Positions 2,652 to 36,295 are shown, numbered from the stretch's first letter. The stretch: 64,000 nt of DNA from Lentisphaeria bacterium (GCA_041690595.1 JAWLHB010000022.1:1-64000); one strand, 5' to 3'. Notes: a model not told the origin generated them from the sequence alone. Translations and numbers: made by a program.

Positions 2652-3458
2652 TTACTCCTGATCGGCGGTGGGAATCCAGTCGATGGCCGGGGTTGGCGTG
2701 GGGGCACCTTCCCAGCCGAGTTGCCGGGAGAGGTCGATAGCGGCGAGGTGGACCTCCCGGAGCATCTTCATGGAGTGCTCGGAATTGGCCCGAAAAGTTG
2801 GGGCGGAGGCACCGATGGCCGCAAGCACATTCTCCCCGGCGGTGCGTATGGGCGCGGCCATCGCCGTCTGTCCGCCGCTGTGACGTTGCAGAACGCAGCA
2901 GCCGAGCTGACGCAGTTGCTCCAGCTCTTCCGTCCAGCGCTCGGTTTGCCAGTAGGGTTGAGCCCCGGAGTTGCGTTCGATGAAAGCGGGCCATACCTCT
3001 GGGGGCTGAAGGGCCACAAGCAGCCGGCCGGTCGCGAGGCTCATCGCATTGGGCCATTCCCACTGGGGATAGTGGATGGTGACCGCCTCGGTTCCCGGAG
3101 AAAAAGCAATCAGGCGAGCGCTGTAGCCGACCAGAATGGCGGCGGATGCGGCTTCGCCCGTGCGGGCGCTGATGCGGTTGAGGAATGGCTGCATCTGGCC
3201 AGGCAGGCTCTGCAGTGGATCCCAGCTCGAGGCCAAGGCCGCCATGGCCGGGCCCAATCGATAGCGCCCATTGATGTTGAGCAGGTAATGGCGCGCGGCC
3301 AGCGTGCGCAGGATGTTGTGCACGGTGGCGACGTGCAGCCCGACAAGCGTCGACAGCTCCGTAACTCCCGCTTCTCCGGCGGCACTCACCGCTTCCAGTA
3401 TATCCATGGCCCGGTCCAGGCACTGTACGCCACGCGGCGCTGCTTTCTTCATATTCAC
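2652..3458 (-). CDS. IclR-family transcriptional regulator
   Basis: VQCLDRAMDILEAV N-terminal HTH (GVTELS..GLHVATVHNIL..L), ATGRLL, MAAPIR C-terminal effector domain. Confidence 0.9.
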   Translation of the reverse strand: MNMKKAAPRGVQCLDRAMDILEAVSAAGEAGVTELSTLVGLHVATVHNILRTLAARHYLLNINGRYRLGPAMAALASSWDPLQSLPGQMQPFLNRISARTGEAASAAILVGYSARLIAFSPGTEAVTIHYPQWEWPNAMSLATGRLLVALQPPEVWPAFIERNSGAQPYWQTERWTEELEQLRQLGCCVLQRHSGGQTAMAAPIRTAGENVLAAIGASAPTFRANSEHSMKMLREVHLAAIDLSRQLGWEGAPTPTPAIDWIPTADQE

Positions 3459-19518: not shown

Positions 19519-21138
19519 ACCTTGCAGCCCCCAACGTGGGAGGCGGCCTCCGGACGGCGATCTCCTGGGCACGCCACTCGCCTGAGTGGCACCGGCGTTG
19601 GACGTTGCCACTCCCCAAAACATCGGTCCATTCCTCGGTCCAAACCAACCACCACCACACTCTCCTTCTTTGCGCTCTCTGCGCTCTTTGTGGTAGATCC
19701 CCAAAACATCGGTCCATTCCTCGGTCCTGCCTTCCGGCAATGTGGGAGGCGGCCTCCGGACGGCGATCTCCTGGGCACGCCACTCGCCTGAGTGGCACCG
19801 GCAATGTGGGAGGCGGCCTCCGGACGGCGATCTCCTGGGCACGCCACTCTCCCGAGTGGCCCCGGCAATGTGGGAGGCGGCCTCCGGACGGCGATTGCAG
19901 CCTTGCAGCTCCAACGTGGGAGGCGGCCTCCGGACGGCGATCTCCTGGGCACGCCACTCGCCTGAGTGGCACCGGCGTTGGACGTTGCTTCTCCCCAAAA
20001 CCTCGGTCCATTCCTCGGTCCTGCCTTCCGGCAATGTGGGAGGCGGCCTCCGGACGGCGATTGCAGCCTTGCAGCCCCCAATGTGGGAGGGGCTCTCCGA
20101 GCCGCGATTGGGCTGTTGCCCCCAACAGCCCTGCATTTGCCGCTCCCCAAAACCTCGGTCAAATCCTCGGTCCAAACCAACCACCATTTTCCTTCTTTGC
20201 GCTCTCTGCGTTCTTTGTGGTAGATCCCGAAAACCTCGGTCGAATCCTCGGTCCTGCCTTCCTCCAACGTGGGAGGCGGCCTCCGGACGGCGATCTCCTG
20301 GGCACGCCACTCGCCTGAGTGGCACCGGCGTTGGACGTTGCCCACTCCCCAAAAACATCGGTCGAAACCTCGGTCCTGCCTTCCGGCAATGTGGGAGGCG
20401 GCCTCCGGACGGCGATTGCAGCCTTGCAGCCCCCAACAGCCCTGCATATGCCCACTGCCCAAAACCTCGGTCCATTCCTCGGTCCGAAACCCATAACCAA
20501 CCACCACTCTCCTTCTCTGCGCTCTCTGCGTTCTTTGTGGTAGATTCCTTGTCCCCGCTTCCACTCCCCAAAAACCTCGGTCCAAACCTCGGTCCAAACC
20601 AACCACCTTTTCCTTCTTTGCGCTCTCTGCGTTCTTTGTGGTCAATTTCAGTCGCCCCCTCCCAAGATCCAAAACTATAAAATCAAAAAAAACATAGCAT
20701 GACTAACTCAAAAGTCAAGGCGGATCGAATAAGATATGAACATCCATCCCATCGGAAAGTAAGGCAGACATTCCTGTCTGCCCGTCAAGTCCTGCCAAGA
20801 CCTGCCTCCGGCGGCTGGGAAGATCGCATCTCCCCAAACCCCTGCTGGACTCTCAACAAGGATTGCCCTCCGCCAACACCTCCTGTCCCCGGTTCAGTTC
20901 AGGCCGTAGCCCCTTACGGCCTGCTTCCGACATCGCCCCTCCTCCTTTCTGCGCTCTCTGCGCTCTTTGTGGTTAAAGCTGCCCCATCCTGGGCACGCCA
21001 CTCTCCTGAGTGGCACCGGCGTTACCCCCTGCAGCCTCAATGTGGCAGCCGGCCTCCGGACGGCGATTGTCCTCAGCTTGCCAAGCCCTGCCTCCGGCGG
21101 CTGGGGAGATCGCATCTCCCCAGACCCCTGCTGGAGTA
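19519..21138. repeat. mosaic of REP-like hairpin modules (left cluster)
   Basis: Repeated modules in one orientation: A CAA(C/T)GTGGGAGGCGGCCTCCGGACGGCGAT (about 10 copies), B CTGGGCACGCCACTCGCCTGAGTGGCAC, C TTCTTTGCGCTCTCTGCGTTCTTTGTGGT, D CCTCGGTCCATTCCTCGGTCC, E TGCAGCCTTGCAGC; also GGCAGACATTCCTGTCTGCC and CTGGGGAGATCGCATCTCCCCAG hairpins. Confidence 0.9.
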
Positions 21139-21213: not shown

Positions 21214-24200
21214 GTTTCAATCCACGCCCCCCGTGCGGGGAGCGACTGCTGATCGACCGTGGCAGCAACACGTTTGCCGCGGTTTCAATCCACTCCCCCC
21301 GTGCGGGGAGCGACCAAGACACTGTGGGAAACTAACGATCTACTGGCGGGTTTCAATCCACGCCCCCCGTGCGGGGAGCGACGGTTACGGCGCATACCAG
21401 CCCGAAGGTGGACTGGTTTCAATCCACGCCCCCCGTGCGGGGAGCGACAGGACGCAAAAAGCCCCCAGCCCCCGACCCCGAAGTTTCAATCCACGCCCCC
21501 CGTGCGGGGAGCGACGAATCTGGTGGCGAAGAGTGGCGAGATTGCGGAGTTTCAATCCACGCCCCCCGTGCGGGGAGCGACGTTTGAGGCTGATGTTGCG
21601 TGGTCGCAGGACTGGTTTCAATCCACGCCCCCCGTGCGGGGAGCGACCATGTACGATAGCCGGGCACGAAGCCGGCTGGAGGTTTCAATCCACGCCCCCC
21701 GTGCGGGGAGCGACATGATTCGGGCGTATTTCGCGATGATTCCGCTATCGTTTCAATCCACGCCCCCCGTGCGGGGAGCGACAGAGTGCTAAACTTTATT
21801 TTAGCGAAATTGTAAGTTTCAATCCACGCCCCCCGTGCGGGGAGCGACTCGTCCAGTATTTGTAGGGGAGTACCGTTGACAAGTTTCAATCCACGCCCCC
21901 CGTGCGGGGAGCGACTTACGGCGTGATCCAAGACTGGTCCGGAGCCTACGTTTCAATCCACGCCCCCCGTGCGGGGAGCGACCCGAAGATACAAGAGGCG
22001 TTCGCTAAGATCAAAGTTTCAATCCACGCCCCCCGTGCGGGGAGCGACACATAACGATCAACATGGCGGAAGAATCGCAATGTTTCAATCCACGCCCCCC
22101 GTGCGGGGAGCGACCCCCGAACGCCGCCAGCTCGTCCTTGCCTTCCAGAGTTTCAATCCACGCCCCCCGTGCGGGGAGCGACAAGAGACCCGCATCACCG
22201 TCAAGACCCCCGGGACGTTTCAATCCACGCCCCCCGTGCGGGGAGCGACTCTGGGCATACCGGATTGCCGTGTCGCTCATGACGTTTCAATCCACGCCCC
22301 CCGTGCGGGGAGCGACATCATGTCCGGATGGCTAAAACGCCTCATCATTGTTTCAATCCACGCCCCCCGTGCGGGGAGCGACTCACGTGGGGGCCACTGG
22401 AGTACTGGATTGGACTGTTTCAATCCACGCCCCCCGTGCGGGGAGCGACAGAAGGCGCCGACTCCAAAGCTGGAAGTACCAAAGTTTCAATCCACGCCCC
22501 CCGTGCGGGGAGCGACTGTCCTGACATGCCAACTCACATGCCGCAATCATTGTTTCAATCCACGCCCCCCGTGCGGGGAGCGACATCTCACTGTGCACGC
22601 CGCCGTGATCGGGTTGGAGTTTCAATCCACGCCCCCTGTGCGGGGAGCGACCTGCCCGCCGACCAGGGCAATCGTCTGGGCGACGTTTCAATCCACGCCC
22701 CCCGTGCGGGGAGCGACGCCTGCCAATGCACCAGATGGTGCGGGTGATGGAGTTTCAATCCACGCCCCCCGTGCGGGGAGCGACCTTCCTCATTGCGCGC
22801 ATCGATGACCAGACCTGGTTTCAATCCACGCCCCCCGTGCGGGGAGCGACGTAGAGGCCCTGGGGATTGCGCCTGAGCTTGCTGTTTCAATCCACGCCCC
22901 CCGTGCGGGGAGCGACGTTGCTGCTCATGTAGTCAACGATGCGATCCTTGTTTCAATCCACGCCCCCCGTGCGGGGAGCGACGTCCATCGAGGCCGAGGT
23001 GCTGGGCGACCAGGANNNNNNNNNNNNNNNNNNNNNNNNNNNNNNNNNNNNNNNNNNNNNNNNNNNNNNNNNNNNNNNNNNNNNNNNNNNNNNNNNNNNN
23101 NNNNNNNNNNNNNNNGTTTCAATCCACGCCCCCCGTGCGGGGAGCGACCAGGTAGACGCCGCCTTGCGTGTACGCTTCGTAGTTTCAATCCACGCCCCCC
23201 GTGCGGGGAGCGACCAGGTAGACGCCGCCTTGCGTGTACGCTTCGTAGTTTCAATCCACGCCCCCCGTGCGGGGAGCGACTCTCCACAAACGGCAGCCGC
23301 GCCTCGCCACATTCATGTTTCAATCCACGCCCCCCGTGCGGGGAGCGACTTGACGACGGGCGGCGCGGTGACCACGCCGGAGTTTCAATCCACGCCCCCC
23401 GTGCGGGGAGCGACTACTTGGCTTGGTCGAAGGCGGTGGCGGGGATGTAGTTTCAATCCACGCCCCCCGTGCGGGGAGCGACGGGGGGGCTGATAGCCCT
23501 TTCAGCGGGGGATGGGTTTCAATCCACGCCCCCCGTGCGGGGAGCGACCGAAGGAGGCGGTCTGCGCGGCGAGGGCGGCGCTGTTTCAATCCACGCCCCC
23601 CGTGCGGGGAGCGACGCAGCAGCACCACGCAATCCACCATCTTGGCGTTGTTTCAATCCACGCCCCCCGTGCGGGGAGCGACTCAGCGCAGAAGATCTTG
23701 CCGACGCCATGGACGCTGTTTCAATCCACGCCCCCCGTGCGGGGAGCGACGCGGCCGGCGATGTCAACGTCAAGGTTTACAAGTTTCAATCCACGCCCCC
23801 CGTGCGGGGAGCGACTCGCGACGGCATACTCAAAGGGCAGTTCACCACGTTTCAATCCACGCCCCCCGTGCGGGGAGCGACCCACCTTCGCGCCGGTCGG
23901 AGGATCCACCCGATGTTTCAATCCACGCCCCCCGTTGCGGGGAGCGACCAACAGCCCACACCGCCGAAGCTTCGTATGTATGTTTCAATCCACGCCCCCC
24001 GTGCGGGGAGCGACTCAGCGTAGCGGGTTATTCGCTCGCCATCTCCTTCAGTTTCAATCCACGCCCCCCGTGCGGGGAGCGACCCAATAATGGACGGCTT
24101 CCGCCAGTGCCAGTTTGTTTCAATCCACGCCCCCCGTGCGGGGAGCGACCCCAGCCGGGACAAAATCGCATGCGGATTCGAGGTTTCAATCCACGCCCCC

Positions 24201-27200
24201 CGTGCGGGGAGCGACGGTAGTCGATAACACGGATGTTTTCGACGACTTGGTTTCAATCCACGCCCCCCGTGCGGGGAGCGACACCGACATCGTCATCACC
24301 TGGACCGGGCAAACCGTTTCAATCCACGCCCCCCGTGCGGGGAGCGACGAGACCTGCGCGACACGTTGCCCATCTTTGCGATCGTTTCAATCCACGCCCC
24401 CCGTGCGGGGAGCGACCCCCGGGGAGGTTACGCCGTGGGGGTGGCGAGGAGGTTTCAATCCACGCCCCCCGTGCGGGGAGCGACCGACTAAGTCAACCAA
24501 CGAGGATACCACCCAATGTTTCAATCCACGCCCCCCGTGCGGGGAGCGACCATCGAAGTCGTTTCGCATGAGTTCCGCTGGGTGTTTCAATCCACGCCCC
24601 CCGTGCGGGGAGCGACTATATTAGGTTTGCGGTCGAACAGCGCATACATGTTTCAATCCACGCCCCCCGTGCGGGGAGCGACCGATCGCCACTTCCCAGA
24701 GGGGCAAGGGCACAACGTTTCAATCCACGCCCCCCGTGCGGGGAGCGACCCCCCGTACCCTTCTCGGTCACCAAGCCTCCGTGGTTTCAATCCACGCCCC
24801 CCGTGCGGGGAGCGACCATATTGGCGCACATCGCGGGCATGGAAGCCACGTTTCAATCCACGCCCCCCGTGCGGGGAGCGACAGGCGCCGCGGCTGTTAC
24901 GGCGAGATCGAACTGGTTTCAATCCACGCCCCCCGTGCGGGGAGCGACGGTGAATTTCGCGGTCGTGGCGTTGCCTGTCTGGTTTCAATCCACGCCCCCC
25001 GTGCGGGGAGCGACCGGGTCTGCCGTTGGGATTGTTGGCGGGACTCCTGTTTCAATCCACGCCCCCCGTGCGGGGAGCGACCAGACTATGCGAGACAGAC
25101 GCTATTTGCCCGGATGTTTCAATCCACGCCCCCCGTGCGGGGAGCGACGTTCGATTTCTCGACCGTCATCGTCAGCCTGCTGTTTCAATCCACGCCCCCC
25201 GTGCGGGGAGCGACCCACCGGATCGAAGGCATTTACGATCCCCGCGGGTTTCAATCCACGCCCCCCGTGCGGGGAGCGACGGCTATCACCTCAGGAGGTA
25301 GCTTCAATGCTTTGTTTCAATCCACGCCCCCCGTGCGGGGAGCGACAGTACGCTCATTGTCATCACCCTTGGTTATATCGTTTCAATCCACGCCCCCCGT
25401 GCGGGGAGCGACGCAGCAAGATTTCGCGATGCAGGATGCCGCACAGTTTCAATCCACGCCCCCCGTGCGGGGAGCGACGCTCTTCCACGATCACTACACC
25501 GCGAATGGATGGTTTCAATCCACGCCCCCCGTGCGGGGAGCGACTCTCCATGGATGGCGGGGTCGAGCTTGCTGGCGGTGTTTCAATCCACGCCCCCCGT
25601 GCGGGGAGCGACCAAGGTTGCCGACACGTTGGTTTTCGGCGGCTGGTTTCAATCCACGCCCCCCGTGCGGGGAGCGACGATCTGGCGATTGCGCGGGAGA
25701 ATCTGACGGGGGTTTCAATCCACGCCCCCCGTGCGGGGAGCGACCATCTGGTTCGACCCCCGGACCAATGCCACCCGCGTTTCAATCCACGCCCCCCGTG
25801 CGGGGAGCGACCTACTTCTACAGGCCGGTATGGAGAGGCAACGAGTTTCAATCCACGCCCCCCGTTCGGGGAGCGACGGCCTTCAGCAGCTTCCGGACCT
25901 CCGCCTCGGTGTTTCAATCCACGCCCCCTGTGCGGGGAGCGACGTACCCAACCATCATGACTCCCATCGGGACCATGTTTCAATCCACGCCCCCCGTGCG
26001 GGGAGCGACAAACGTCACGACCTACACCAGCAACATGACCGATGTTTCAATCCACGCCCCCCCGTGCGGGGAGCGACCAACATCGTTTCCCAGATGCCCG
26101 CGATGTCGGCGTTTCAATCCACGCCCCCCGTGCAGGGAGCGACGAAGCCATCCTACCCGACCCGCCCGACTACATGGTTTCAATCCACGCCCCCCGTGCG
26201 GGGAGCGACGATGATGAACGCTGACAGACACACAAGCCCGACGTTTCAATCCACGCCCCCCGTGCGGGGAGCGACTGAGTCGTGATTTGCCCTATCGCGA
26301 GGACTGGCAGTTTCAATCCACGCCCCCCGTGCGGGGAGCGACACTGATCCTGTCGAAGAGCTGCTTGCACTCCTCGTTTCAATCCACGCCCCCCGTGCGG
26401 GGAGCGACGGCGGCTCGATCGAAGTACCGACCGAAGTCATGGTTTCAATCCACGCCCCCCGTGCGGGGAGCGACGCTGATCAAACGCGGCAACAGCTTTC
26501 TCGTCAGAGTTTCAATCCACGCCCCCCGTGCGGGGAGCGACGTTCTTCATCAATGCCGCGGTTGCGTTCTGGCGGTTTCAATCCACGCCCCCCGTGCGGG
26601 GAGCGACTGCTACCTTGCGGAGATATGACTTTTCGGTCCTGTTTCAATCCACGCCCCCCGTGCGGGGAGCGACTCACTTCAGGGTTTCCACGGATGCGCA
26701 CTACGCAGAGTTTCAATCCACGCCCCCCGTGCGGGGAGCGACGGGGGCTGTAGTGGTGTTAGTCAAGTGGGAGTGTTTCAATCCACGCCCCCCGTGCGGG
26801 GAGCGACCGCTCCCTCAACCAGCGAGGCGCCGAGCTGATAGTTTCAATCCACGCCCCCCGAGCGGGGAGCGACTTCTGGAGCCCAACGTATATGGCGTGA
26901 TCAGTCGTTTCAATCCACGCCCCCCGTGCGGGGAGCGACAGACGGGCGGTGCAGACTGTGCGGCTGCTTCGTGTTTCAATCCACGCCCCCCGTGCGGGGA
27001 GCGACTGTAGACCATATTGAGGCGCTTACGGGCAATCTTGTTTCAATCCACGCCCCCCGTGCGGGGAGCGACCCAGCAGATGGGGTCTGATGAGCAGCTG
27101 CCGTTGTTTCAATCCACGCCCCCCGTGCGGGGAGCGACATCGAGGAACTGGCATCGCGGGGAAAGGGTACCGTTTCAATCCACGCCCCCCGTGCGGGGAG

Positions 27201-28469
27201 CGACGCAGGCGGCATGATAGCGGGGCTTCGTAGATCGTGTTTCAATCCACGCCCCCCGTGCGGGGAGCGACTGACGGTCGCGGGCAGCGCCCCGGCCATG
27301 TTCAAGTTTCAATCCACGCCCCCCGTGCGGGGAGCGACATGGACGGCATACCCGACCCCGACCGACTCGGAGTTTCAATCCACGCCCCCCGTGCGGGGAG
27401 CGACATGCGCGATGCGCTGGCGGGGAGGGCAGGGGTATGTTTCAATCCACGCCCCCCGTGCGGGGAGCGACGTCCTCGGCGCGCTCTCCTATCAGTCCGG
27501 ATGGTTTCAATCCACGCCCCCCGTGCGGGGAGCGACTTGTCGAGCGCAGCCAGACCATGGGGCGAACGATGTTTCAATCCACGCCCCCCGTGCGGGGAGC
27601 GACGTGCACCGGAGCGTGGAAGAAGTCTTCTTCAGGGTTTCAATCCACGCCCCCCGTGCGGGGAGCGACGGCGGCGATGTGCTCGAAAACGTCCTGAGCT
27701 GTGTTTCAATCCATGCCCCCCGTGCGGGGAGCGACATCGAAGAGCTGCACGATGAGCACGGGGCGATTTTGTTTCAATCCACGCCCCCCGTGCGGGGAGC
27801 GACATGCGGTTAGGTGGGAAGTCGAATTTTCGCAAGGGTTTCAATCCACGCCCCCCGTGCGGGGAGCGACATTGTCAGCTTCATTACTGACAACTGGGAA
27901 CTGAGGTTTCAATCCACGCCCCCCGTGCGGGGAGCGACGCACTCTGTCACGCCCCATTTGCACCATCTCCGAGTTTCAATCCACGCCCCCCGTGCGGGGA
28001 GCGACACGATCACGACTCGCACGCCGTTCGCTGCCGACTGTTTCAATCCACGCCCCCCGTGCGGGGAGCGACCCTCGCTCCATCGGCTGTTAGTGTGTGT
28101 GTCCAGTTTCAATCCACGCCCCCCGTGCGGGGAGCGACCAGCCGCCTCGCCGCCTCCCCCGTCGCCCGCGTGTTTCAATCCACGCCCCCCGTGCGGGGAG
28201 CGACGCCTACCCAAGTTAAAAGCCGACTCGGAAACCTGTTTCAATCCACGCCCCCCGTGCGGGGAGCGACCCAAGTAGTCGACATGGTGCTTGCCAAAGG
28301 CGCGTTTCAATCCACGCCCCCCGTGCGGGGAGCGACATGGCGCGAGACCTCGAGAAGACGGCCAACGCCCTGTTTCAATCCACGCCCCCGTGCGGGGAGC
28401 GACCGCATCCCCATAATCCGCACACGTCAACACCTGGTTTCAATCCACGCCCCCCGTGCGGGGAGCGAC
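21214..28469 (-). CRISPR. type I-C CRISPR array, about 108 repeats (manual count), interrupted by a 100-N gap
   Basis: 33-bp repeat GTCGCTCCCCGCACGGGGGGCGTGGATTGAAAC on the minus strand; 8-bp stem, ATTGAAAC 3' end; spacers of about 33-36 bp; leader on the cas side. Confidence 0.99.
23016..23115. other. scaffold gap (100 N) inside the array
   Basis: Run of N. Confidence 1.
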
Positions 28470-28824: not shown

Positions 28825-29048
28825 AAGCCATTGAGAACCGACCCAAGACGTACGCTGGTGGCACGGTGGATCCCGGGACGACTACTGGCGCCGGCTGATC
28901 CACCCGCGCGTGCAGCAGCCGCTCCTGGGCCGTCAATCGATTCTCTCGCCACAACTGCACGATGTGGATGAGGGGGGAACTACCGCTCGCAGAATAGCAG
29001 ATGCTGCAAACCTGAGAGCGGCAGGTACTCATCCTCATTCTCAGAAAT
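28825..29048 (-). pseudogene. cas4: cas4 remnant (5' fragment only)
   Basis: ISENEDEYLPLSGLQHLLFCER* (TAG at 28982-28980 where Gln is expected), frameshift in a C6 run, LIHIVQLWRENRLTAQERLLHARVD, second shift to GASSRPGIHRATSVRLGS; no ATG in frame; directly after cas7. Confidence 0.88.
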
Positions 29049-29052
29049 GACG

Positions 29053-29961
29053 TCAGAGTCGCTCATCGATGGTGATGCCCTGCGGAAGGTTGTCGCGGTC
29101 GATGTCAATCTGATAGTCGGCGATGGCGCGAGGTGGGTGATCCTTGTGCTTCAGGGACACCGTTACCCGCTCGAAGAGCTGGTGGGCGTGGGCATTCCCC
29201 AGTTTCGACTCGTGCTTGAAGACGACGAGCTTGCGGGTGGCCATTTCGCCGCGAGCCGCGGAGCGGTCGTGCTCGAACATGTTGACGAGTGCGTCCCAGA
29301 GAAGCTGCAAGTCATCCTCATTGAAGCCGGTCTGGGCGGCAATCGGAGCAGAGACAAAGCCGTGGGCGCGATACAGGCCATAGGGTACAATAGTCTTGCG
29401 GCCCATGGTGCCGGTGACCTGGCCATGCTTTTTGATCTGCTCGTCGGCTTCAGACTGCTTGGCAACGGCTTTACGGACGATGGTCTGTTCGGGGGCGGCG
29501 ATAGGGTCGAGTGACCGGGCGAAGGTGATCTGCACGGGGCCGCGCACCTGCCCGCAGTTGATATCGAGCGTGAGAACGGCGCCGAAGGAGCGGATATCGA
29601 AGAAGGTCTGGCACATCCATGCCCGAGCCTTTTCGACGTTGCTGAGCGACTTCTCCTTAGGGTCGAGACCATTGACTTCGTAGGCCTGCATATGCATGGT
29701 CTGGAGGACGCCGCGGTGCTTGATGTAGATGTCATAGCCATCGGACGGAGATCCATCGGCGGCGCCCTTGGCGAGGGTGACGTAGTCCCGGATCTTGCGC
29801 TTGAGGCAGACGTCGGTGACGAGACCATGGCCGGTTTCGTTGTCGAGGCGCGGTGCGTTGCCGGCATCGGGGTCACCGTTGGGGTTGCCGTTGGCGACGT
29901 CGAAGAGAAGCACGAAGTCGTAGCGGTTCTCGATGGCGGGGGCTACAGTGGTAGTACTCAT
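29053..29961 (-). CDS. cas7: type I-C Cas7 (Csd2)
   Basis: IENRYDFVLLFDV.NGNPNGDPDAGNAPR, TDVCLKRKIR, FFDIRSFGAV, GQVRGPVQ, TMGRK, MFEHDRSAARG. Confidence 0.97.
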   Translation of the reverse strand: MSTTTVAPAIENRYDFVLLFDVANGNPNGDPDAGNAPRLDNETGHGLVTDVCLKRKIRDYVTLAKGAADGSPSDGYDIYIKHRGVLQTMHMQAYEVNGLDPKEKSLSNVEKARAWMCQTFFDIRSFGAVLTLDINCGQVRGPVQITFARSLDPIAAPEQTIVRKAVAKQSEADEQIKKHGQVTGTMGRKTIVPYGLYRAHGFVSAPIAAQTGFNEDDLQLLWDALVNMFEHDRSAARGEMATRKLVVFKHESKLGNAHAHQLFERVTVSLKHKDHPPRAIADYQIDIDRDNLPQGITIDERL

Positions 29962-29995
29962 GATCGGTCCTTTCTGTTGTGGTGGTTGACTGAGG

Positions 29996-31990
29996 TCAGA
30001 CGTTTTGATTTTCGGGTTCAGCTTCGCGGGTCTTGCTCCAGATATACGCACGCGGTGCGTCGGGATTCTCCTTCTCCCACTGTGCTCGCTCTTCCTTGTT
30101 GAGCCAAAGCCACTTGCGCATCTGGTGATAGCCAATAATGAAGAGGCCCTGCTGGTTCTGGTCGAGACTGGCGGGGAAACCATTGCTGACTTGGCTGGCG
30201 AGTTTGTCCTGGAAGCGTGGATCTACGACGAGGAAGCGGTCGGCGAGTTCATCGACCAGCCTTTCCAAGCGGAAGACGAAGCCGGCGTTCTGCTTGTCGT
30301 CCATGCCCTTGCGGGCGTGGTGTCTGGCACTTTTCAGCAGGTTGATGAAGATGCTGCGTGGCGCGGCGGAGGCGCCGCTAAAGTAGCGGTCGATAACGGA
30401 GGCGTTGATGTCGCCGAGGGCGGCTGCCTGAAGCCGTTCAAGAACAGCAATGAGCTGGCCAAGCACATAGCCTTCGTCTGTGCAGGTGGGATTCATGATC
30501 GGGTGGATCTCCTTGTTTGTAGATGTGGAGGACTGGCGATAGAGACGTAACAGGACAGCTCGGATGAGAGCAGCGCGCGCATCGTTCCACTGGCGGGCGC
30601 GCCATCCTTCGGCGCCGCCGGCATTTTCCTGAGCGACCTCGATGCGGTAGCGGGCGACGGCGCGTGGCAGGACTGCGTAAGGGAAGAGTTCGCCGGTGAT
30701 GGCAGCGCGATAGAAGCCGGCGGCCACGTGAGCGGGGACGCCTTCGGCCCGGCGCTCGCGTGGTTCTGCGATGGCTTCGAGCAGCTCACCGATGGGAAAG
30801 CCGGGTGGGTGAGATTTCCCCTTGATCGGCGAATTTCGCCGCACCATGCGCAGATCGGCGAAGTAGGCGGCGAGGTTGTTCACCACGTTCTGGGTGTTGC
30901 TTTCGATCCAATCGCGGAGCGTGGCACGCCCCTGGGCGCCGCTGAGCACCAGAGAGTAGAATGCGGTCGGCGTCGCCACGGGAAACGGCCGACCGCTCCA
31001 GATGGACTGGTACAATCGGCGTAGCTCCTCTGGATCAGCCGCCGGTTCTTCCTGATCCAAGTCGGGATTCATGATCGTGTTCATCATATCCGCAATCCTG
31101 TCACCCCCTTTGCGCGTCCAATAGCAGGCGACGGTATCGGCGCTGAGCTTGGAATTGCGGCGAGTGAGTGACCGGTTGGTATCGGCGGGGTCCGGATAGG
31201 CCGGATGGATGAGGCGATTGAGGGCGGTCATGGTCGCTTCGGATGCTTCGCGGGAGATAGGCGCATTCTCCGCCCCTTCCAAGCCGTACGATTCAAAGGC
31301 GTTCTTGTTGAAGGAGATGAGAGCGATGCCGCTGGTGGAACCGCCTGGCACCCGCTTGATGACCGGATGCTTGTCGACCGGCAAGCAGGGCTTTCCGGTG
31401 ACCATGCACCGTACGCCACCGTCCCCGGATGGCTCGTCTTCGGCGCGCTCGGCCGCCCAGTACTCACGTACGGCCGAGCGTTCGTGTACCAGCAGGTCGA
31501 TATCCGGAGCATAGATGAAGGCAAAGAGATCGTTTGTTGCGCAGTCTTCGGGCAGTTCAACGGATCCTGGGACGCCGCCAAGCCGGTCTAGAAAATCGGC
31601 GACGGCCTTGACGCCAGGATCCCGAGTTGCGGCCAGACACGCGTGGACCTTCTCCCGAAAAAGCTCGAAGCGGATATGGAGCTTGTCCACGTCTCGCATA
31701 CCGGCAGGGTCGATCCCAAGGACGTACTCCGCTTTGTCGACAAGGAAAAAGGCGCGGTCGCCACTGGTACGGGCGGACTCTCTCGGCACAAGGAAAGTGC
31801 GGGCAAAAGATTTTGGCTTGCGTTTGGAGTCTTCCGGCACCTCCTCGACAACCTCCGTCTTCTGGACACCGCCAAGCAGTTTGCCGCCGTCGGCAACGGT
31901 AAGCAGGTAGCGGACTGGCTTTGGTTCGAAGTCGGGATCGCCCATGAGGTGCTCGCGTACCGATAGCTCGTAGAGTGCTTGAAGGATCAT
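29996..31990 (-). CDS. cas8c: type I-C Cas8c (Csd1)
   Basis: MILQALY, FLVDKAEYVLG, CMVTG, LISFNKNAFESYG, YVLGQL.A.LERLQ, QGLF.IGYHQ. Confidence 0.95.
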   Translation of the reverse strand: MILQALYELSVREHLMGDPDFEPKPVRYLLTVADGGKLLGGVQKTEVVEEVPEDSKRKPKSFARTFLVPRESARTSGDRAFFLVDKAEYVLGIDPAGMRDVDKLHIRFELFREKVHACLAATRDPGVKAVADFLDRLGGVPGSVELPEDCATNDLFAFIYAPDIDLLVHERSAVREYWAAERAEDEPSGDGGVRCMVTGKPCLPVDKHPVIKRVPGGSTSGIALISFNKNAFESYGLEGAENAPISREASEATMTALNRLIHPAYPDPADTNRSLTRRNSKLSADTVACYWTRKGGDRIADMMNTIMNPDLDQEEPAADPEELRRLYQSIWSGRPFPVATPTAFYSLVLSGAQGRATLRDWIESNTQNVVNNLAAYFADLRMVRRNSPIKGKSHPPGFPIGELLEAIAEPRERRAEGVPAHVAAGFYRAAITGELFPYAVLPRAVARYRIEVAQENAGGAEGWRARQWNDARAALIRAVLLRLYRQSSTSTNKEIHPIMNPTCTDEGYVLGQLIAVLERLQAAALGDINASVIDRYFSGASAAPRSIFINLLKSARHHARKGMDDKQNAGFVFRLERLVDELADRFLVVDPRFQDKLASQVSNGFPASLDQNQQGLFIIGYHQMRKWLWLNKEERAQWEKENPDAPRAYIWSKTREAEPENQNV

Positions 31991-32658
31991 GCTGTCACCT
32001 CCTCGGGAAGCGGATTCAGGGGCACCTCGATGACGCCATTCTCCATCTTTGCTTCGAAGAAGAGCGGGGTTGTGGATTTGGCGGCGAAGTCGATATCCCA
32101 GAGCATCCGGCCAAGGTCACGGCTATCGGTTATGGGCTGCGGGTCGTCGAGCGGCGGAAGGATTTCCGCCGCGCACTCCCGGCAACCGAGGTAGGGCTGG
32201 TGAAAATGCTGGCCCTTCTCGACGCGGCGGGTGAACATGTCGATGAACTTGTAGATGTTGTCTTCAGCACCGGCGTGCTCCGTCAGGCTGAAGTGTGCAT
32301 CGACCTGATAGTCGACATCGCGCAGGGCGATGGTATTGCGTTGGGCGCGGTTGCTCGAATCGTCTGCGAAGTAAACGGGCGGCGCACCTCCGTTCTCGAC
32401 GATTTCGCGGGTGGGCGCCGCCCCCTTGTTGTTGATTTCATTGCGTCGAAAGGCGATGAAATGGATGGGCGCCAGCACAAAAATGCGCTCTACGTGCCAG
32501 CGGATCGCCGGCTTCCAGAAGACCGCCTCGATGAGTCCGCGCATGGCGGAAGGAGTGGGGACAGGATAGCTGACCCGCTCGGTTTTAAGCTCGGGGCGCG
32601 TAAAGATGGCCAACGGGCCGCGCGCTCGTATGCTCAGTGTGGGACCTCTTTCAGGCAT
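31987..32658 (-). CDS. cas5c: type I-C Cas5 (Cas5d, pre-crRNA processing nuclease)
   Basis: GPLAIFTRPELKTERVSY.VPTPSA.RG..EAVFWKPAI, RRNEI, LRDVDY, QPYLGCRE; AGAGG RBS before the ATG at 32658. Confidence 0.97.
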   Translation of the reverse strand: MPERGPTLSIRARGPLAIFTRPELKTERVSYPVPTPSAMRGLIEAVFWKPAIRWHVERIFVLAPIHFIAFRRNEINNKGAAPTREIVENGGAPPVYFADDSSNRAQRNTIALRDVDYQVDAHFSLTEHAGAEDNIYKFIDMFTRRVEKGQHFHQPYLGCRECAAEILPPLDDPQPITDSRDLGRMLWDIDFAAKSTTPLFFEAKMENGVIEVPLNPLPEEVTA

Positions 32659-32754
32659 GGTAATACCTCTTGGGTTGGGGACTTGAGAAAGAGATGTGGA
32701 ACAGATTGGAAAACGTATGCAGAGGAGAGCTGGTCTATCGCAGTCTTTACGAAT

Positions 32755-32782
32755 ACAATAACCAAATTTAATATTCATACAA
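32755..32782 (-). promoter_or_regulatory. predicted sigma-70 promoter of cas5-cas8c-cas7
   Basis: TTGTAT-N16-TATTGT in an AT-rich island upstream of cas5; overlaps the crlRNA target site. Confidence 0.45.
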
Positions 32783-32807
32783 GTAAACTTATACAGAACT
32801 GGAGGAC

Positions 32808-32837
32808 TTGCGGGCACAAGTTGTGTAGATATATTGT
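32808..32837 (+). promoter_or_regulatory. predicted divergent promoter for the mini-array RNA
   Basis: TTGCGG-N16-TATATT (or N18-TATTGT) ending just before the pseudo-repeat. Confidence 0.4.
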
Positions 32838-32844
32838 CCCGTTA

Positions 32845-32952
32845 GTTTTCGCTCACAGAGCGTGGATTGAAACTGTATCAGCGAACTTGTGGCAATCGTA
32901 TCAGTCTCGGCCTCACACCGTATCGTCGGCGTGGGGCCGAGCCATTTCAGAC
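32845..32952 (+). ncRNA. putative crRNA-like regulatory RNA (degenerate mini-array: pseudo-repeat, 30-nt spacer, hairpin)
   Basis: GTTTTCGCTCACAGAGCGTGGATTGAAAC shares its last 14 nt with the array repeat and keeps a CGCTC/GAGCG stem; spacer 32874-32903; long hairpin GTCTCGGCCTCAC...GTGGGGCCGAG..ATTTCAGAC. Confidence 0.7.
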
Positions 32953-35121
32953 AGTCCATGCACGTCCTCCGGCGGCTACGTCAGTCATCAGGCCGAATCG
33001 CTGGTCATAGAGATCGTGAAATCCTGGCGACAGGGTGTACACGGTATCGGCGATTAGGTGAATGGCGCCGGCGTCCTGGAGCTTCTTCCAGTTCTGGGGG
33101 TAGAGATTCACGCTGAAGGGCTGGAGGGCGCGCAGGTTCTGACGAGTCATGCCACCGGGCTGCTGCAGCGTTTCAAGTCGAGAGGCCGCATCTCCGAACA
33201 GAACCACCAGCGACTGCGTCTGCCCATCTGGAATGATGCTGAACGTCTGTGCCACGTTCGGATAATCCCAGCTTTCTCTGAGCGTCATGATGCTTTTGCC
33301 GTCGGTGCTTCCACTTCCATAGAACTTGCGGAAATAGTAGGCGTAGAGATCTGGACTGGTGAGATCCAGATGGCCGTCGACAGTCTGCACGATCCCCTTT
33401 TCGCCTGCATCGAGCACCAGCTTCATCGTATCGCGGCCCACGCGGGGCGTGCCTGACGGCGGACTCGTGGGGGCCACGAACACGTAGACGTGGCCAAGCG
33501 GCAGTTCACCTTCGCGATTACAGCGTCCGGCTGCTTGCACGATGGAGTCAAGCCCTGCCAGCGCACGATACACAATGGGAAAACTGACGTCGACGCCGGC
33601 CTCGATGAGCTGAGTTGAGACGAGCAGACACGGCTTCTTCTCCCGTAGTATCTTGCGCACGCGGTTCAGTACCTGGAGGCGGTGAGCCGGGCACATGAGC
33701 GCCGAGAGATGGTAGGTGTACTCGGATGGCAACAACTCCGCCAGCTCGCGGGCGTCCTTCCGCAGGTGAGTGACGGCCAGCACCTGCCGCTCCGGATGCT
33801 GCAGGATGCGTTGCGCCAACTCATCGTAGCTTGTCGCATCTGATGTCTCCGGCCAATGAACCTGAACGCGATTGAGATTCCGCGCCAAGTCCTGGGGCCG
33901 TGGTATGATTTCACGGACGTCGACAAGACCCTCAAAGCGCTCGCGTCTGGCCAATGCGGGCTGTGTTGCGGTGGACAGCACAACCGTGCAGCCGTAACAG
34001 TCCGCAAGTTGCTGCAACATGTCGAGTATGGTCATGAGATACTCCATGGGCAGTGTCTGCACTTCGTCGAGGATGACGACGCTGCGGGCGATGTTATGGA
34101 GCTTGCGGCACGTTGATGAGCGATTGGCGTGAAGAGATTCGAGGAACTGGACCGACGTAGTTACGATGACCGGAGCATCCCAGTTCTCACTGGCCAGCTT
34201 GTTTTGGCGCGATTCGCGGACGGGATCGAGTGCGGAATGGTGTTCGATGACCTGTTCGGCACCGAACACATCTTTGTAGACCCTGGCGTTCTGCTCGATG
34301 ATACTGGTATAGGGGACGACAACAATCACCCGCCGCAAATCGTGCTGCTGAGCGTGATTCAGTGCGAAGGACATGCCGGCGAGGGTCTTCCCGCCACCTG
34401 TCGGCACGCTGAGGGAGAAGATGCCCGGTTCTTTGGAGGCAGCGGCGCGACAGTCATTGAGGATCTGAGCGCGTTGTAGGTTTACTGGGGTAGGATCGGC
34501 AGTGACAACGATGGCATCGAGATGAATATCGAGTCTCTGCCGCAACTCGCCGATATCCGCAAACGATGGCCGGGCGGTTTCCCGCATCGCCGCCTCGGTG
34601 TCGAGGAAATCCGCATCGACAAGAGCTGAGAAGAGGAAGCGCATCCACATTTCGAAGCGGCGCTTCTGGTGCTGGAGATTATCGGACTTGATGAACGCTG
34701 GCGGCTGAAGGTGGTCAGGTGGCGGCAGAGCGCGGGCGCACGCGGGCAACTTCGACAATAACGACTTCTTGGCAAGCATGGCGCCGGTTACGGTGGTTAC
34801 ATTCTGGAGCCCGGTATGATGCGAAAGGATCAACAGCGCGAGCGGCAAACTGTTGGCCAGGAGCGCCCCGAAGATGGCATGATCCTTGTCTTCACCGTTG
34901 CGCAACTGACCGCGGAGATAACGCTGAAAGCTGGCGCGGTACTTGCCGACGTCATGCAGCAGCCCAGCAGCTTTCCCCCATGCTTGTGAGTCGAATGCGG
35001 CCGCGAACTGCCCTGCCAGTTCCGCGACACCCCGCAGGTGGTCATCGAGCGTCTGCCACTGGTCCTCTGGCAACGGCAGTCGAGTGACCGGGTCCTCCTT
35101 GGTATGCGCGTGATACGTCAT
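32947..35121 (-). CDS. cas3: Cas3 HD nuclease-helicase
   Basis: YHAHT, LDDHL, LHDVGK (HD), LVDADFLD, PTGGGKT, LDEVQ, SATQP, STQLIEAGVD, QAAGRCNRE. Confidence 0.97.
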   Translation of the reverse strand: MTYHAHTKEDPVTRLPLPEDQWQTLDDHLRGVAELAGQFAAAFDSQAWGKAAGLLHDVGKYRASFQRYLRGQLRNGEDKDHAIFGALLANSLPLALLILSHHTGLQNVTTVTGAMLAKKSLLSKLPACARALPPPDHLQPPAFIKSDNLQHQKRRFEMWMRFLFSALVDADFLDTEAAMRETARPSFADIGELRQRLDIHLDAIVVTADPTPVNLQRAQILNDCRAAASKEPGIFSLSVPTGGGKTLAGMSFALNHAQQHDLRRVIVVVPYTSIIEQNARVYKDVFGAEQVIEHHSALDPVRESRQNKLASENWDAPVIVTTSVQFLESLHANRSSTCRKLHNIARSVVILDEVQTLPMEYLMTILDMLQQLADCYGCTVVLSTATQPALARRERFEGLVDVREIIPRPQDLARNLNRVQVHWPETSDATSYDELAQRILQHPERQVLAVTHLRKDARELAELLPSEYTYHLSALMCPAHRLQVLNRVRKILREKKPCLLVSTQLIEAGVDVSFPIVYRALAGLDSIVQAAGRCNREGELPLGHVYVFVAPTSPPSGTPRVGRDTMKLVLDAGEKGIVQTVDGHLDLTSPDLYAYYFRKFYGSGSTDGKSIMTLRESWDYPNVAQTFSIIPDGQTQSLVVLFGDAASRLETLQQPGGMTRQNLRALQPFSVNLYPQNWKKLQDAGAIHLIADTVYTLSPGFHDLYDQRFGLMTDVAAGGRAWTV

Positions 35122-35287: not shown

Positions 35288-36295
35288 TCAGATCAAGTTG
35301 CTGACGCTGTCCGCCGTCTCTCCTGCATCCGCATGTCGTTCGGCGAGCTTCAGGGCGGCGGCGTGGAGTTGGGGACGGAGGGAGGGTGGGGCGATCAGCG
35401 TCAGATGGGGGGCGTAGGCGAGGATCCAGCGGACCAGGAGGGGCTCCGGGGCCGACGGGAAGCGGAGCGTCAGCGAACCATCCTCGTGCATGGTCAGCCC
35501 CTGACCCGGAAACCATTCGCGCTCGCTGATCAGGCGCCCCTTCTCGGGCGCCACCCGCACGACCACCTCCGCCACTTCGTCGTAGCCGAAGGGATTCCCA
35601 TTGCTCAAGCCCGCCAGCAGCCCCAGACTCCGCTCAAAGGTCGACTCCAGCACCACCGTATCCAGGCAGCGATGCATCGCGAAGGAGCGCACCGCGCGTC
35701 GCAGTCGACACCAGGCCCGAATGTACCAGCCGCCTCCGCTCAGAAAGAGCGCATGCGGCTCGATATCCCGCGGCAGATAGCGGTCATCCTCGCTGCAATA
35801 GGTGATCCGCAGCACGCGGCACTCCCGCCACCCCTCCAGGATATCCTCGAAGACCCGGCCCGGCGGCTCCACCTGCGCTGTCGTCGCCTGGATGACCGAG
35901 TGCAGCATCTCCGCCGAGAGCATCGTCGGATCCCCCGCCGCCAACAGTACCCGATCCGCCTCGGCCAGCGGCTCCTGCAGCGCGCTCGGCAGCAGCGGTG
36001 TCGTCAGCCGATGCGCAAACAGACTCGCAAAGCGCGCATCCTCCTCCAGCGCTGACGTCGGATAGGTCCAGGTCCGATCCCGCAGACAATACCCATGCTC
36101 CGCCGCATCGTACGCGATCGGCGCATCCAGCTTCCCTTGCATCCACTGGATGTCCCGCTGAATCGTCTTCGCGCACGCGCACAGGTGCGGCCGCATCCGC
36201 TTCGCCAGCGCCTGCGACGAAAGCACCCGGTTTACCTTCAACAGGCCGACAATCGCCACTCGTCGGCTGACCGTCTGAGAGTAGGAATCCTGCAT
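35288..36295 (-). CDS. HTH-WYL-WCX domain transcriptional regulator
   Basis: N-terminal wHTH (KTIQRDIQWM, APIAYD...GY), RDIEPHAL...WYIRAWC..R...RSF..HR, C-terminal WCX-like region; AGGAGG RBS. Confidence 0.92.
   Translation of the reverse strand: MQDSYSQTVSRRVAIVGLLKVNRVLSSQALAKRMRPHLCACAKTIQRDIQWMQGKLDAPIAYDAAEHGYCLRDRTWTYPTSALEEDARFASLFAHRLTTPLLPSALQEPLAEADRVLLAAGDPTMLSAEMLHSVIQATTAQVEPPGRVFEDILEGWRECRVLRITYCSEDDRYLPRDIEPHALFLSGGGWYIRAWCRLRRAVRSFAMHRCLDTVVLESTFERSLGLLAGLSNGNPFGYDEVAEVVVRVAPEKGRLISEREWFPGQGLTMHEDGSLTLRFPSAPEPLLVRWILAYAPHLTLIAPPSLRPQLHAAALKLAERHADAGETADSVSNLI

Follow-up and report, generated by a model that had tools for sequence, protein, structure and literature searches.

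Our analysis points to a solitary CRISPR repeat unit in the gap between cas3 and cas5 of a type I-C locus of a Lentisphaeria bacterium, from which a crRNA-like RNA would guide the I-C Cascade to a TTC-flanked, partially matching site before cas5. The locus lies in a stretch of 64,000 nucleotides (GCA_041690595.1 JAWLHB010000022.1:1-64000), referred to here as the window. This core reading, made from sequence comparison, is well supported, and the anatomy of the unit, the statistical specificity of its match to the target and the reappearance of this design elsewhere among I-C loci were all shown. The unit is probably of the CreR type, i.e., its crRNA-like RNA would repress the cas5-cas8c-cas7 genes. 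It belongs to a known I-C class, for which the mechanism and the I-C architecture are already present in preprints. A preliminary description of this DNA had called the element a mini-array, but a solitary repeat unit with a 3' hairpin is the better name.

The window carries a type I-C CRISPR locus on the minus strand, and its cas genes were assigned by profile matches. The cas3 gene (32947..35121) encodes HD, DEAD and Cas3 C-terminal domains (HD nuclease and helicase); it precedes the gap and does not belong to the genes under the predicted control. The cas5c gene (31987..32658, Cas5d family, PF09704, E = 2.5e-35) is the first gene of the presumed regulated operon and is followed on the same strand by cas8c (Csd1; 29996..31990; PF09709, E = 2.4e-107) and cas7c (29053..30183; PF05107, E = 1.1e-102). 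The genes cas3, cas5c, cas8c and cas7 are full-length and have strong family matches, and a WYL/WCX-domain protein is encoded at 35288-36295. The main CRISPR array (21214..28447, minus strand) contains 108 copies of the handle sequence and a 100-N gap at 23016-23115, and its repeat reads GTCGCTCCCCGCACGGGGGGCGTGGATTGAAAC in the transcribed orientation. The cas4 gene is a remnant with a stop codon and a frameshift, the locus is without cas1 and cas2, and a search of the 97%-complete assembly yielded no Cas1. Since cas1, cas2 and most of cas4 have been lost, some decay of the locus is plausible; it retains the 108-spacer array but can no longer acquire spacers. The cas3-cas5 gap (32659-32946, ~288 bp) has a GC content of 45.5% as compared to 63.5% for the window, and the lowest GC of the region, 28%, was found at 32750-32809, a trough with which the predicted target coincides. 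Neither a credible gene nor a credible small ORF was found in the ~288-bp gap, and no non-cas defence gene separates cas3 from cas5c. From the target to cas5, the sequence has no start codon preceded by a ribosome-binding site; a toxin in the form of a non-coding RNA would escape such a reading. Since the gap is without a credible gene, only cas5c-cas8c-cas7 are downstream of the target. No Rfam match was found in 32400-33200 at E up to 1.

The unit itself is located on the plus strand and begins with a degenerate I-C repeat at 32845..32873, which reads GTTTTCGCTCACAGAGCGTGGATTGAAAC; the shortened repeat of the preliminary description, with its stem base and exact 11 nt, is indeed present in the sequence. 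Both the terminal 14 nt (GCGTGGATTGAAAC) and the CGCTC at the base of the stem are the same in the degenerate repeat and the array repeat. In the predicted fold, a repeat stem-loop is formed at 32850-32862 by a 5-bp stem (CGCTC/GAGCG) with the loop ACA, and the exact 11-nt 5' handle TGGATTGAAAC (32863-32873) abuts this stem. From what is published on I-C processing, a cut by Cas5c is predicted between 32862 and 32863. The handle is followed by a spacer-like guide segment of 30-32 nt at 32874..32905, which ends at the foot of the 3' hairpin; the 30-nt segment at 32874-32903 reads as quoted earlier. A GC-rich 3' hairpin at 32906..32939, which starts 33 nt after the handle according to the fold, closes the unit. 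The whole 123-nt unit folds at -43.6 kcal/mol (z = -2.6). The hairpin with its tail as drawn at first (32904-32952) overlaps the cas3 stop codon at 32947-32949, i.e., the hairpin of the unit is just upstream of the cas3 stop codon and the tail covers it. A strong hairpin does exist in this interval (32906-32939), but its likeness to a second repeat is weak, as the 3' element starts with GTC and its tail CCATTTCAGAC agrees with the handle at only 5/11 positions by manual count. A two-repeat mini-array was also considered and rejected, since no second handle is present and what follows the guide is just a hairpin. A U-run after the 3' hairpin of the unit is absent, and no terminator was called by a consensus scan of 32550-33050.

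The handle sequence TGGATTGAAAC has 109 copies in the window, which are made up of 108 copies on the minus strand (the array) and one on the plus strand (the unit), as against an expectation of 0 in the shuffled window. In the whole genome 111 copies were counted, and the two further ones, without a preceding hairpin, compare with ~4 expected by chance. The exact handle plus stem outside the array is a single copy in the genome, namely the cas3-cas5 unit on the antisense strand.

The predicted Cascade target is located on the minus strand at 32766..32798, with the PAM TTC at 32798-32796 and the protospacer at 32795-32766. It lies ~80 bp from the guide; the distance to the unit is 47 bp, and the start codon of cas5 follows after 138 bp. 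Guide and target were found to match at 18/30 positions, exactly those listed in the preliminary description (1-5, 7-8, 12-17, 21-23 and 26-27), and the mismatches fall on positions 6, 9-11, 18-20, 24-25 and 28-30, with 5/13 matched over positions 18-30 of the guide. When 20,000 shuffles of the guide were compared with the 8 TTC sites of the gap, 18/30 was reached at p = 3e-4, and with every sixth base ignored p was 5e-5. A 15-point pairing score, which counts the non-sixth positions within guide positions 1-17, was then applied to the whole 8.1-Mb assembly, and the target was the only one of 261,085 TTC sites with at least 12/15 matched; by the simple 30-position count, thirteen TTC sites across the genome reached 18/30. 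The cas3-cas5 gaps of 189 other I-C loci served as natural AT-rich controls, and the same guide scored at best 9/15 in them vs 12/15 in its own gap. When both strands of the gap were scanned PAM-blind with guide positions 1-20, p was 0.087, and its best match was the TTC site. The guide-target match is well above chance, given the PAM and the register starting exactly after the handle, and the PAM-blind test alone is weak. Judging from the literature, the limited PAM-distal pairing would be expected to preclude Cas3 cutting.

The position of the target relative to promoters is less certain. A candidate promoter of the cas5 operon, TTGTAT-N16-TATTGT, was placed on the minus strand at 32755..32782, and its -35-like hexamer would fall on protospacer positions 14-19. 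A candidate promoter of the crRNA-like RNA gene, TTGCGG-N16-TATATT, was placed on the plus strand at 32808..32835, with a predicted start near 32842. Both sets of hexamers of the preliminary description are present in the sequence, but their agreement with the sigma-70 consensus is weak (7/12 and 8/12, respectively, by manual count), and neither a sigma-70-like promoter nor a terminator passed the consensus scan of 32550-33050 on either strand. Because the hexamers are weak and the scan reports none, we infer the promoter assignment and treat both promoters as candidates.

To place the unit in a wider context, I-C loci were gathered by Cas5 similarity from species-representative genomes (80 loci), metagenomes (80 loci) and the phylum of the window (30 loci, of which the window's own was set aside), giving 189 with cas5; within the phylum, a Cas5 match was present in 48/401 genomes. 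The cas3 end was visible upstream in 161/189 loci, where the median gap was 81 bp and 46 gaps were >150 bp. An element was defined as a handle with <=1 mismatch within the gap, and 30 such handle-bearing elements were found in 29/189 other I-C loci. They were present in 23/46 of the gaps >150 bp vs 0/115 of the shorter ones, which makes an enlarged cas3-cas5 gap a good predictor of the unit, and six further elements were in the 28 loci whose cas3 end is off the contig. Five handle matches with 2 mismatches (L030, L089, L102, L126 and L179) were left out of the family counts; among them, only L126 had strong nearby pairing, with TTG as PAM. A stem of >=4 bp abuts the handle in 23/30 elements, and folds of the 85 nt that follow the handle, computed for all 30 elements and the window's unit and read manually, revealed a comparable GC-rich hairpin ~18-40 nt after the handle in at least 18/30. 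The element is antisense to cas5, as in the window, in 18/30 cases. In some of the comparison loci the cas3-cas5 gap contains genes of the HNH, PIN plus Phd-like, or NYN kind. The best match of the window's Cas5 in a large protein collection was 69% identical, and no DNA match was found in 60 related genomes. With no close relatives, the co-variation of the window's pair could be judged only across the family.

For each element, guide positions 1-20 were compared with the whole of its own gap, the PAM being ignored, and the best match was taken. The three bases before the best match were TTC in 21/30, TTT in 3/30 and others in 6/30 elements, as compared to a background of ~2% TTC among the trinucleotides of the gaps (1895 sites in 2 x 48,211 positions). 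Across the 21 TTC cases, the match frequency was 0.95-1.0 at positions 1-5, 0.86-0.95 at 7-11, 0.95-1.0 at 13-14 and 0.62-0.81 at 15-17, with dips to 0.43, 0.33 and 0.24 at positions 6, 12 and 18; beyond position 18 it was mostly 0.05-0.38, position 19 having 0.43. As far as sequence can tell, this pairing profile is what a type I Cascade R-loop of no more than ~17 bp leaves behind, and both the PAM and the six-base mismatch periodicity were recoverable blind from sequence. The own gap beat all 189 others for 22/30 elements, and for the remaining 8/30 no own-gap TTC site was better than those of other gaps, two of these 8 using TTT. The strand of the target is mixed across the family (8, 6, 5 and 2 for the four strand combinations), and 14/21 comparison targets sit 40-206 bp before cas5, with 138 bp in the window.

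Guides vary between loci while each still pairs with its own site. In L018 and L032, both planctomycete records by their titles, a manual reading of the printed pairs shows joint changes of guide and target at positions 1, 12 and 13, and GTGTTGC is common to the guides and GTGTAGCTT to the targets. A subclass with a palindromic guide was found in L044, L048 and L152; as the guide is a palindrome, the RNA gene would be its own operator in these three loci. Between L048 and L152, the guide bases that differ do so in pairs, and the palindrome is preserved (manual reading). No description of this subclass was found in the searched literature texts. The pairing of the window, 12/15, is at the low end of the TTC cases, most of which score 13-15, with L032 and L036 also at 12 and L039 at 11. 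The three adjacent mismatches at 9-11 are unusual, L127 having a similar bubble at 10-12. The window's unit has a short stem of the typical kind, its seed (1-5 and 7-8) is intact, and the mismatches at 6 and 18 are as expected.

Natural guides of partial complementarity, by which an effector represses a promoter, are known from tracr-L of Streptococcus pyogenes II-A, acting on its own cas promoter, and from scaRNA of Francisella; these are Class 2 Cas9 systems, whose RNA architecture is unlike that of the window's unit. The preliminary description knew of no characterised I-C example, a statement outdated by bioRxiv 10.1101/2024.12.27.630466 and bioRxiv 10.1101/2023.03.10.532045. The former reports experiments on type I-C solitary repeat units that lie between cas3 and cas5c, e.g., in Neisseria subflava CCUG 29761; their crlRNAs are 48-50 nt long, with the 11-nt handle produced by Cas5c and the 3' end in the loop of the 3' hairpin. 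The same preprint gives TTC or TTA as PAM, pairing over ~16 bp that is broken at positions 6 and 12, and ~20-fold repression of reporters, the regulated genes being inserted defence systems (Nezha, Gabija and eight others). The window's unit resembles the published ones in the I-C subtype, the cas3-cas5c position, the repeat-like hairpin with an 11-nt handle, the 3' hairpin in place of a full second repeat, the TTC PAM, and the partial PAM-proximal pairing with a mismatch at position 6; the published targets adjoin promoter elements, and that of the window adjoins candidate ones. It differs from the units described there in several respects: the published units repress inserted defence genes, whereas in the window none is inserted and cas5c is directly downstream; the published pairing is ~16 contiguous bp, whereas that of the window is interrupted at 9-11; and the predicted RNA of the window would be ~60 nt if it ended in the hairpin loop, vs 48-50 nt. 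The window's unit is, moreover, antisense to the cas genes.

The preprint bioRxiv 10.1101/2023.03.10.532045 reports CreR autorepression for I-B Haloarcula hispanica, I-E Salmonella enterica and V-A Moraxella bovoculi; a manual search there also turned up creA-like elements for I-C and further subtypes, most of them beside the effector promoter. The window shares with these systems a degenerate CRISPR unit inside the cas locus and a guide which partly matches a PAM-flanked site, located at the promoter of the effector cas genes in CreR/CreA and at a candidate promoter in the window, and the same logic, autorepression relieved by crRNA load or anti-CRISPRs, is proposed for the window. The experiments of this source were in I-B, I-E and V-A, not I-C, the predicted processor in the window being Cas5c and not Cas6 or Cas12a. 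In PMC10120712, a repeat-like sequence is listed for 34% and a mini-array for 7% of 1206 I-C loci; our 29/189 handle-bearing loci are of the same order as this catalogue, whose searched text discusses no I-C case. RNA anti-CRISPRs (Racr), including the type I-C RacrIC1, are described in PMC10651486, and they are like the unit in being solitary repeat-like units that mimic the I-C repeat. Racrs are phage- or plasmid-borne decoys, often encoded next to acr genes, whereas the window's unit is part of a host cas operon, where it has its own PAM-flanked target. Phage RNAs that mimic the host CreA/R, including I-C ones of Neisseria sicca, are described in bioRxiv 10.1101/2024.10.29.618823.

Taken with published work on related units, the arrangement of these elements suggests a course of transcription, processing, binding and repression, with the promoters placed as above. 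The unit would be transcribed on the plus strand, opposite to the cas genes, from just before 32845. Cas5c would cut at the 3' foot of the repeat hairpin and leave the 11-nt handle UGGAUUGAAAC, and the GC-rich hairpin at 32906-32939 would define where the RNA ends on its 3' side. Cas5c, Cas8c and Cas7 may then assemble on the crRNA-like RNA, and the loaded Cascade would bind the TTC site at 32798-32766, the most AT-rich stretch of the gap. The R-loop would be partial, formed by the seed at 1-5 and 7-8 and then by positions 12-17, and probably too short to license Cas3 cutting. The bound Cascade would occupy the promoter region of cas5c-cas8c-cas7 and hinder its transcription, and the outcome would be a negative feedback of Cascade on its own synthesis, as in the CreR type. 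Repression would be expected to ease when crRNAs from the 108-spacer array draw Cascade away or when anti-CRISPRs block it. The preliminary description had proposed Cascade autorepression without cleavage, and the core of this proposal gained support from the recurrence in 29/189 loci and from the sixth-base mismatches, the repression itself being the conditional part.

The main alternative is that the unit is an eroding relic of a former Cascade autoregulator, whose pairing has decayed at 9-11 and 18-20 and which is maybe still transcribed and loaded, with no useful repression. We consider this unlikely. The pairing score, lowest but one in the comparison set, the three adjacent mismatches adjoining the seed, the weak promoter-like hexamers, the cas4 remnant with its stop and frameshift and the missing Cas1 of the 97%-complete assembly all fit such erosion. 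But the handle is exact, the stem, the PAM and the seed (1-5 and 7-8) are intact, cas3, cas5c, cas8c and cas7 are full-length, and the target is still the best of the genome's TTC sites by the 15-point score; among the other loci, L127, L032, L036 and L039 likewise tolerate imperfect pairing, with scores of 11-13 and, in L127, a bubble at 10-12. A speculative and rather improbable reading takes the bubble at 9-11 as tuned low-affinity pairing, not decay, which together with the antisense placement would yield a two-layer control. In one layer, a single bound Cascade would reduce transcription in both directions, from the cas5 promoter as well as from the divergent promoter of the unit, which is 10 bp away from the PAM; in the other, transcription of the unit would run head-on into the cas3 end. 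If this were true, Cas3 read-through would be coupled to the Cascade level. An alternative to occlusion of the cas5 promoter is that the bound Cascade acts as a roadblock of read-through from cas3, or represses the unit's own divergent promoter; both are variants of the same mechanism, and we regard them as doubtful. Read-through from cas3 is possible, since the hairpin after cas3 on the cas strand is without a U-run, and no strong cas5 promoter was called. In the case of a roadblock, antisense transcription of the unit into the cas3 end could add interference. For the unit's own promoter, the candidate -35 (32808-32813) is 10 bp from the PAM. As a roadblock, however, Cascade would have its guide paired to the template strand of the cas genes, and in type I CRISPRi this orientation blocks elongation less effectively. 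The position of the target within the AT-rich trough also speaks against a roadblock, and promoter occlusion fits better with a target strand that is mixed across the family (8, 6, 5, 2). One CreA site represses two divergent promoters in bioRxiv 10.1101/2023.03.10.532045, a precedent for control of the unit's own promoter.

It is very unlikely that the unit is a decoy which soaks up Cas5c and Cas7 in the manner of an RNA anti-CRISPR, or that it guides Cascade to a distant gene, e.g., a toxin or defence gene (CreTA, CRISPR-supervised). Solitary repeat units can serve as RNA anti-CRISPRs, one of them of type I-C (PMC10651486), and the published I-C units regulate inserted defence genes according to bioRxiv 10.1101/2024.12.27.630466; the HNH, PIN plus Phd-like and NYN genes in the gaps of some comparison loci would also be in line with targets other than cas5. 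The window's unit, however, lies inside a host chromosomal cas operon, flanked by cas3 and cas5, and not on a phage or plasmid; its gap is without a credible gene, no other genomic TTC site pairs as well by the 15-point score, and the two other genomic copies of the handle are without a hairpin. It is extremely improbable that the resemblance arose by chance, or that recombination left a stray repeat which happens to have a match close by. Such an origin would be consistent with the PAM-blind result (20 nt, p = 0.087) and with a guide and target that are both relatively AT-rich, but it has against it the lone plus-strand handle, the guide shuffles (p = 3e-4), the genome-wide rank of the target, the 189-gap comparison, and a design which recurs in 29 other loci with PAM enrichment and six-base mismatch periodicity.

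The CreR-type reading, in which the unit would repress cas5-cas8c-cas7, opens no new question, as the mechanism and the I-C architecture are already in preprints. Units of this kind account for half of the enlarged cas3-cas5 gaps in our I-C comparison set. The Lentisphaeria unit is a well-supported example, from a little-studied uncultured bacterium, of how effector complexes may use a worn-down guide to sense and adjust their own level.

Among the 29 of 189 other type I-C loci that carry a handle-bearing unit before cas5, like the solitary degenerate repeat, guide and 3' hairpin of the Lentisphaeria window, three loci (L044, L048 and L152) have guides of a distinct kind. Their units lie in the sense orientation in the gap before cas5, about 64-92 bp ahead of its start codon, and the first 18-20 bases of each guide form a perfect palindrome, which is followed within a few bases by a consensus TTGACA. 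The guides of L048 and L152 differ from each other by paired changes that preserve the palindrome. Because the guide is palindromic, the predicted target in these loci is the DNA of the RNA gene itself, read on the other strand and beside a TTC or TTT. No description of this palindromic-guide subclass was found in the literature texts searched. In the window, a short inverted repeat, ACTTG-N6-CAAGT (32807-32822, + strand), occupies part of the interval between target site and unit. By eye, AACTTGTG occurs both in the guide on the + strand and in this inverted repeat on the - strand. The inverted repeat could be a protein-binding site, or it could be due to chance.

In two further unit-bearing loci, L039 and L091, the target of the guide is 470-570 bp ahead of cas5, and small genes are located between cas3 and cas5. 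The gene in L039 encodes an HNH endonuclease (2926-3228; family match E = 5e-6), and those in L091 (630-1489) encode a Phd/YefM-like antitoxin (E = 5e-6) and a PIN-domain protein (E = 1.3e-13). A NYN-domain protein is encoded in L122 (2215-2904, E = 4.5e-14), the guide of which has no clear target (the PAM of the best match is ATA, p = 0.29), and ORFs without a family match are present in L017, L130, L136 and L143. The cas3-cas5 insertions of these loci are similar to published CRISPR-supervised arrangements.

In the window, the gene immediately upstream of cas3 (35288-36295, - strand) encodes a protein with WYL and WCX domains, which is likely a transcription regulator of the I-C locus and possibly a second control layer, acting on cas3. 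Further along, the region 39480-62126 looks like a polysaccharide-use neighbourhood: it encodes several paralogous proteins of the FAD-dependent oxidoreductase (PF12831) and DUF4838 families, as well as glycoside hydrolase domains.

The CRISPR array contains a gap of 100 Ns at 23016-23115, and the two repeat-spacer units directly past it (23116-23181 and 23182-23247) are 100% identical, which is due either to duplication of a spacer or to an artefact of assembly. Short direct repeats of several families were observed at 20000-20700, past the array's far end; examples are 22-30-mers containing ACCTCGGTCC (5-6 copies) and a 32-mer starting CAATGTGGGAGG (4 copies). Downstream of cas7 lies a cas4 remnant (28860-29052, - strand), in which the coding sequence meets a stop after the N-terminal codons and continues in a different frame; this fragment can be aligned with the site that cas4 occupies in 53 other I-C loci. 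No match to the Cas1 family was found in the whole assembly, which is 97% complete. Since cas4 is reduced to a remnant and the assembly has no Cas1 match, the I-C locus of this bacterium retains an interference module and a 108-spacer array but lacks an adaptation module.
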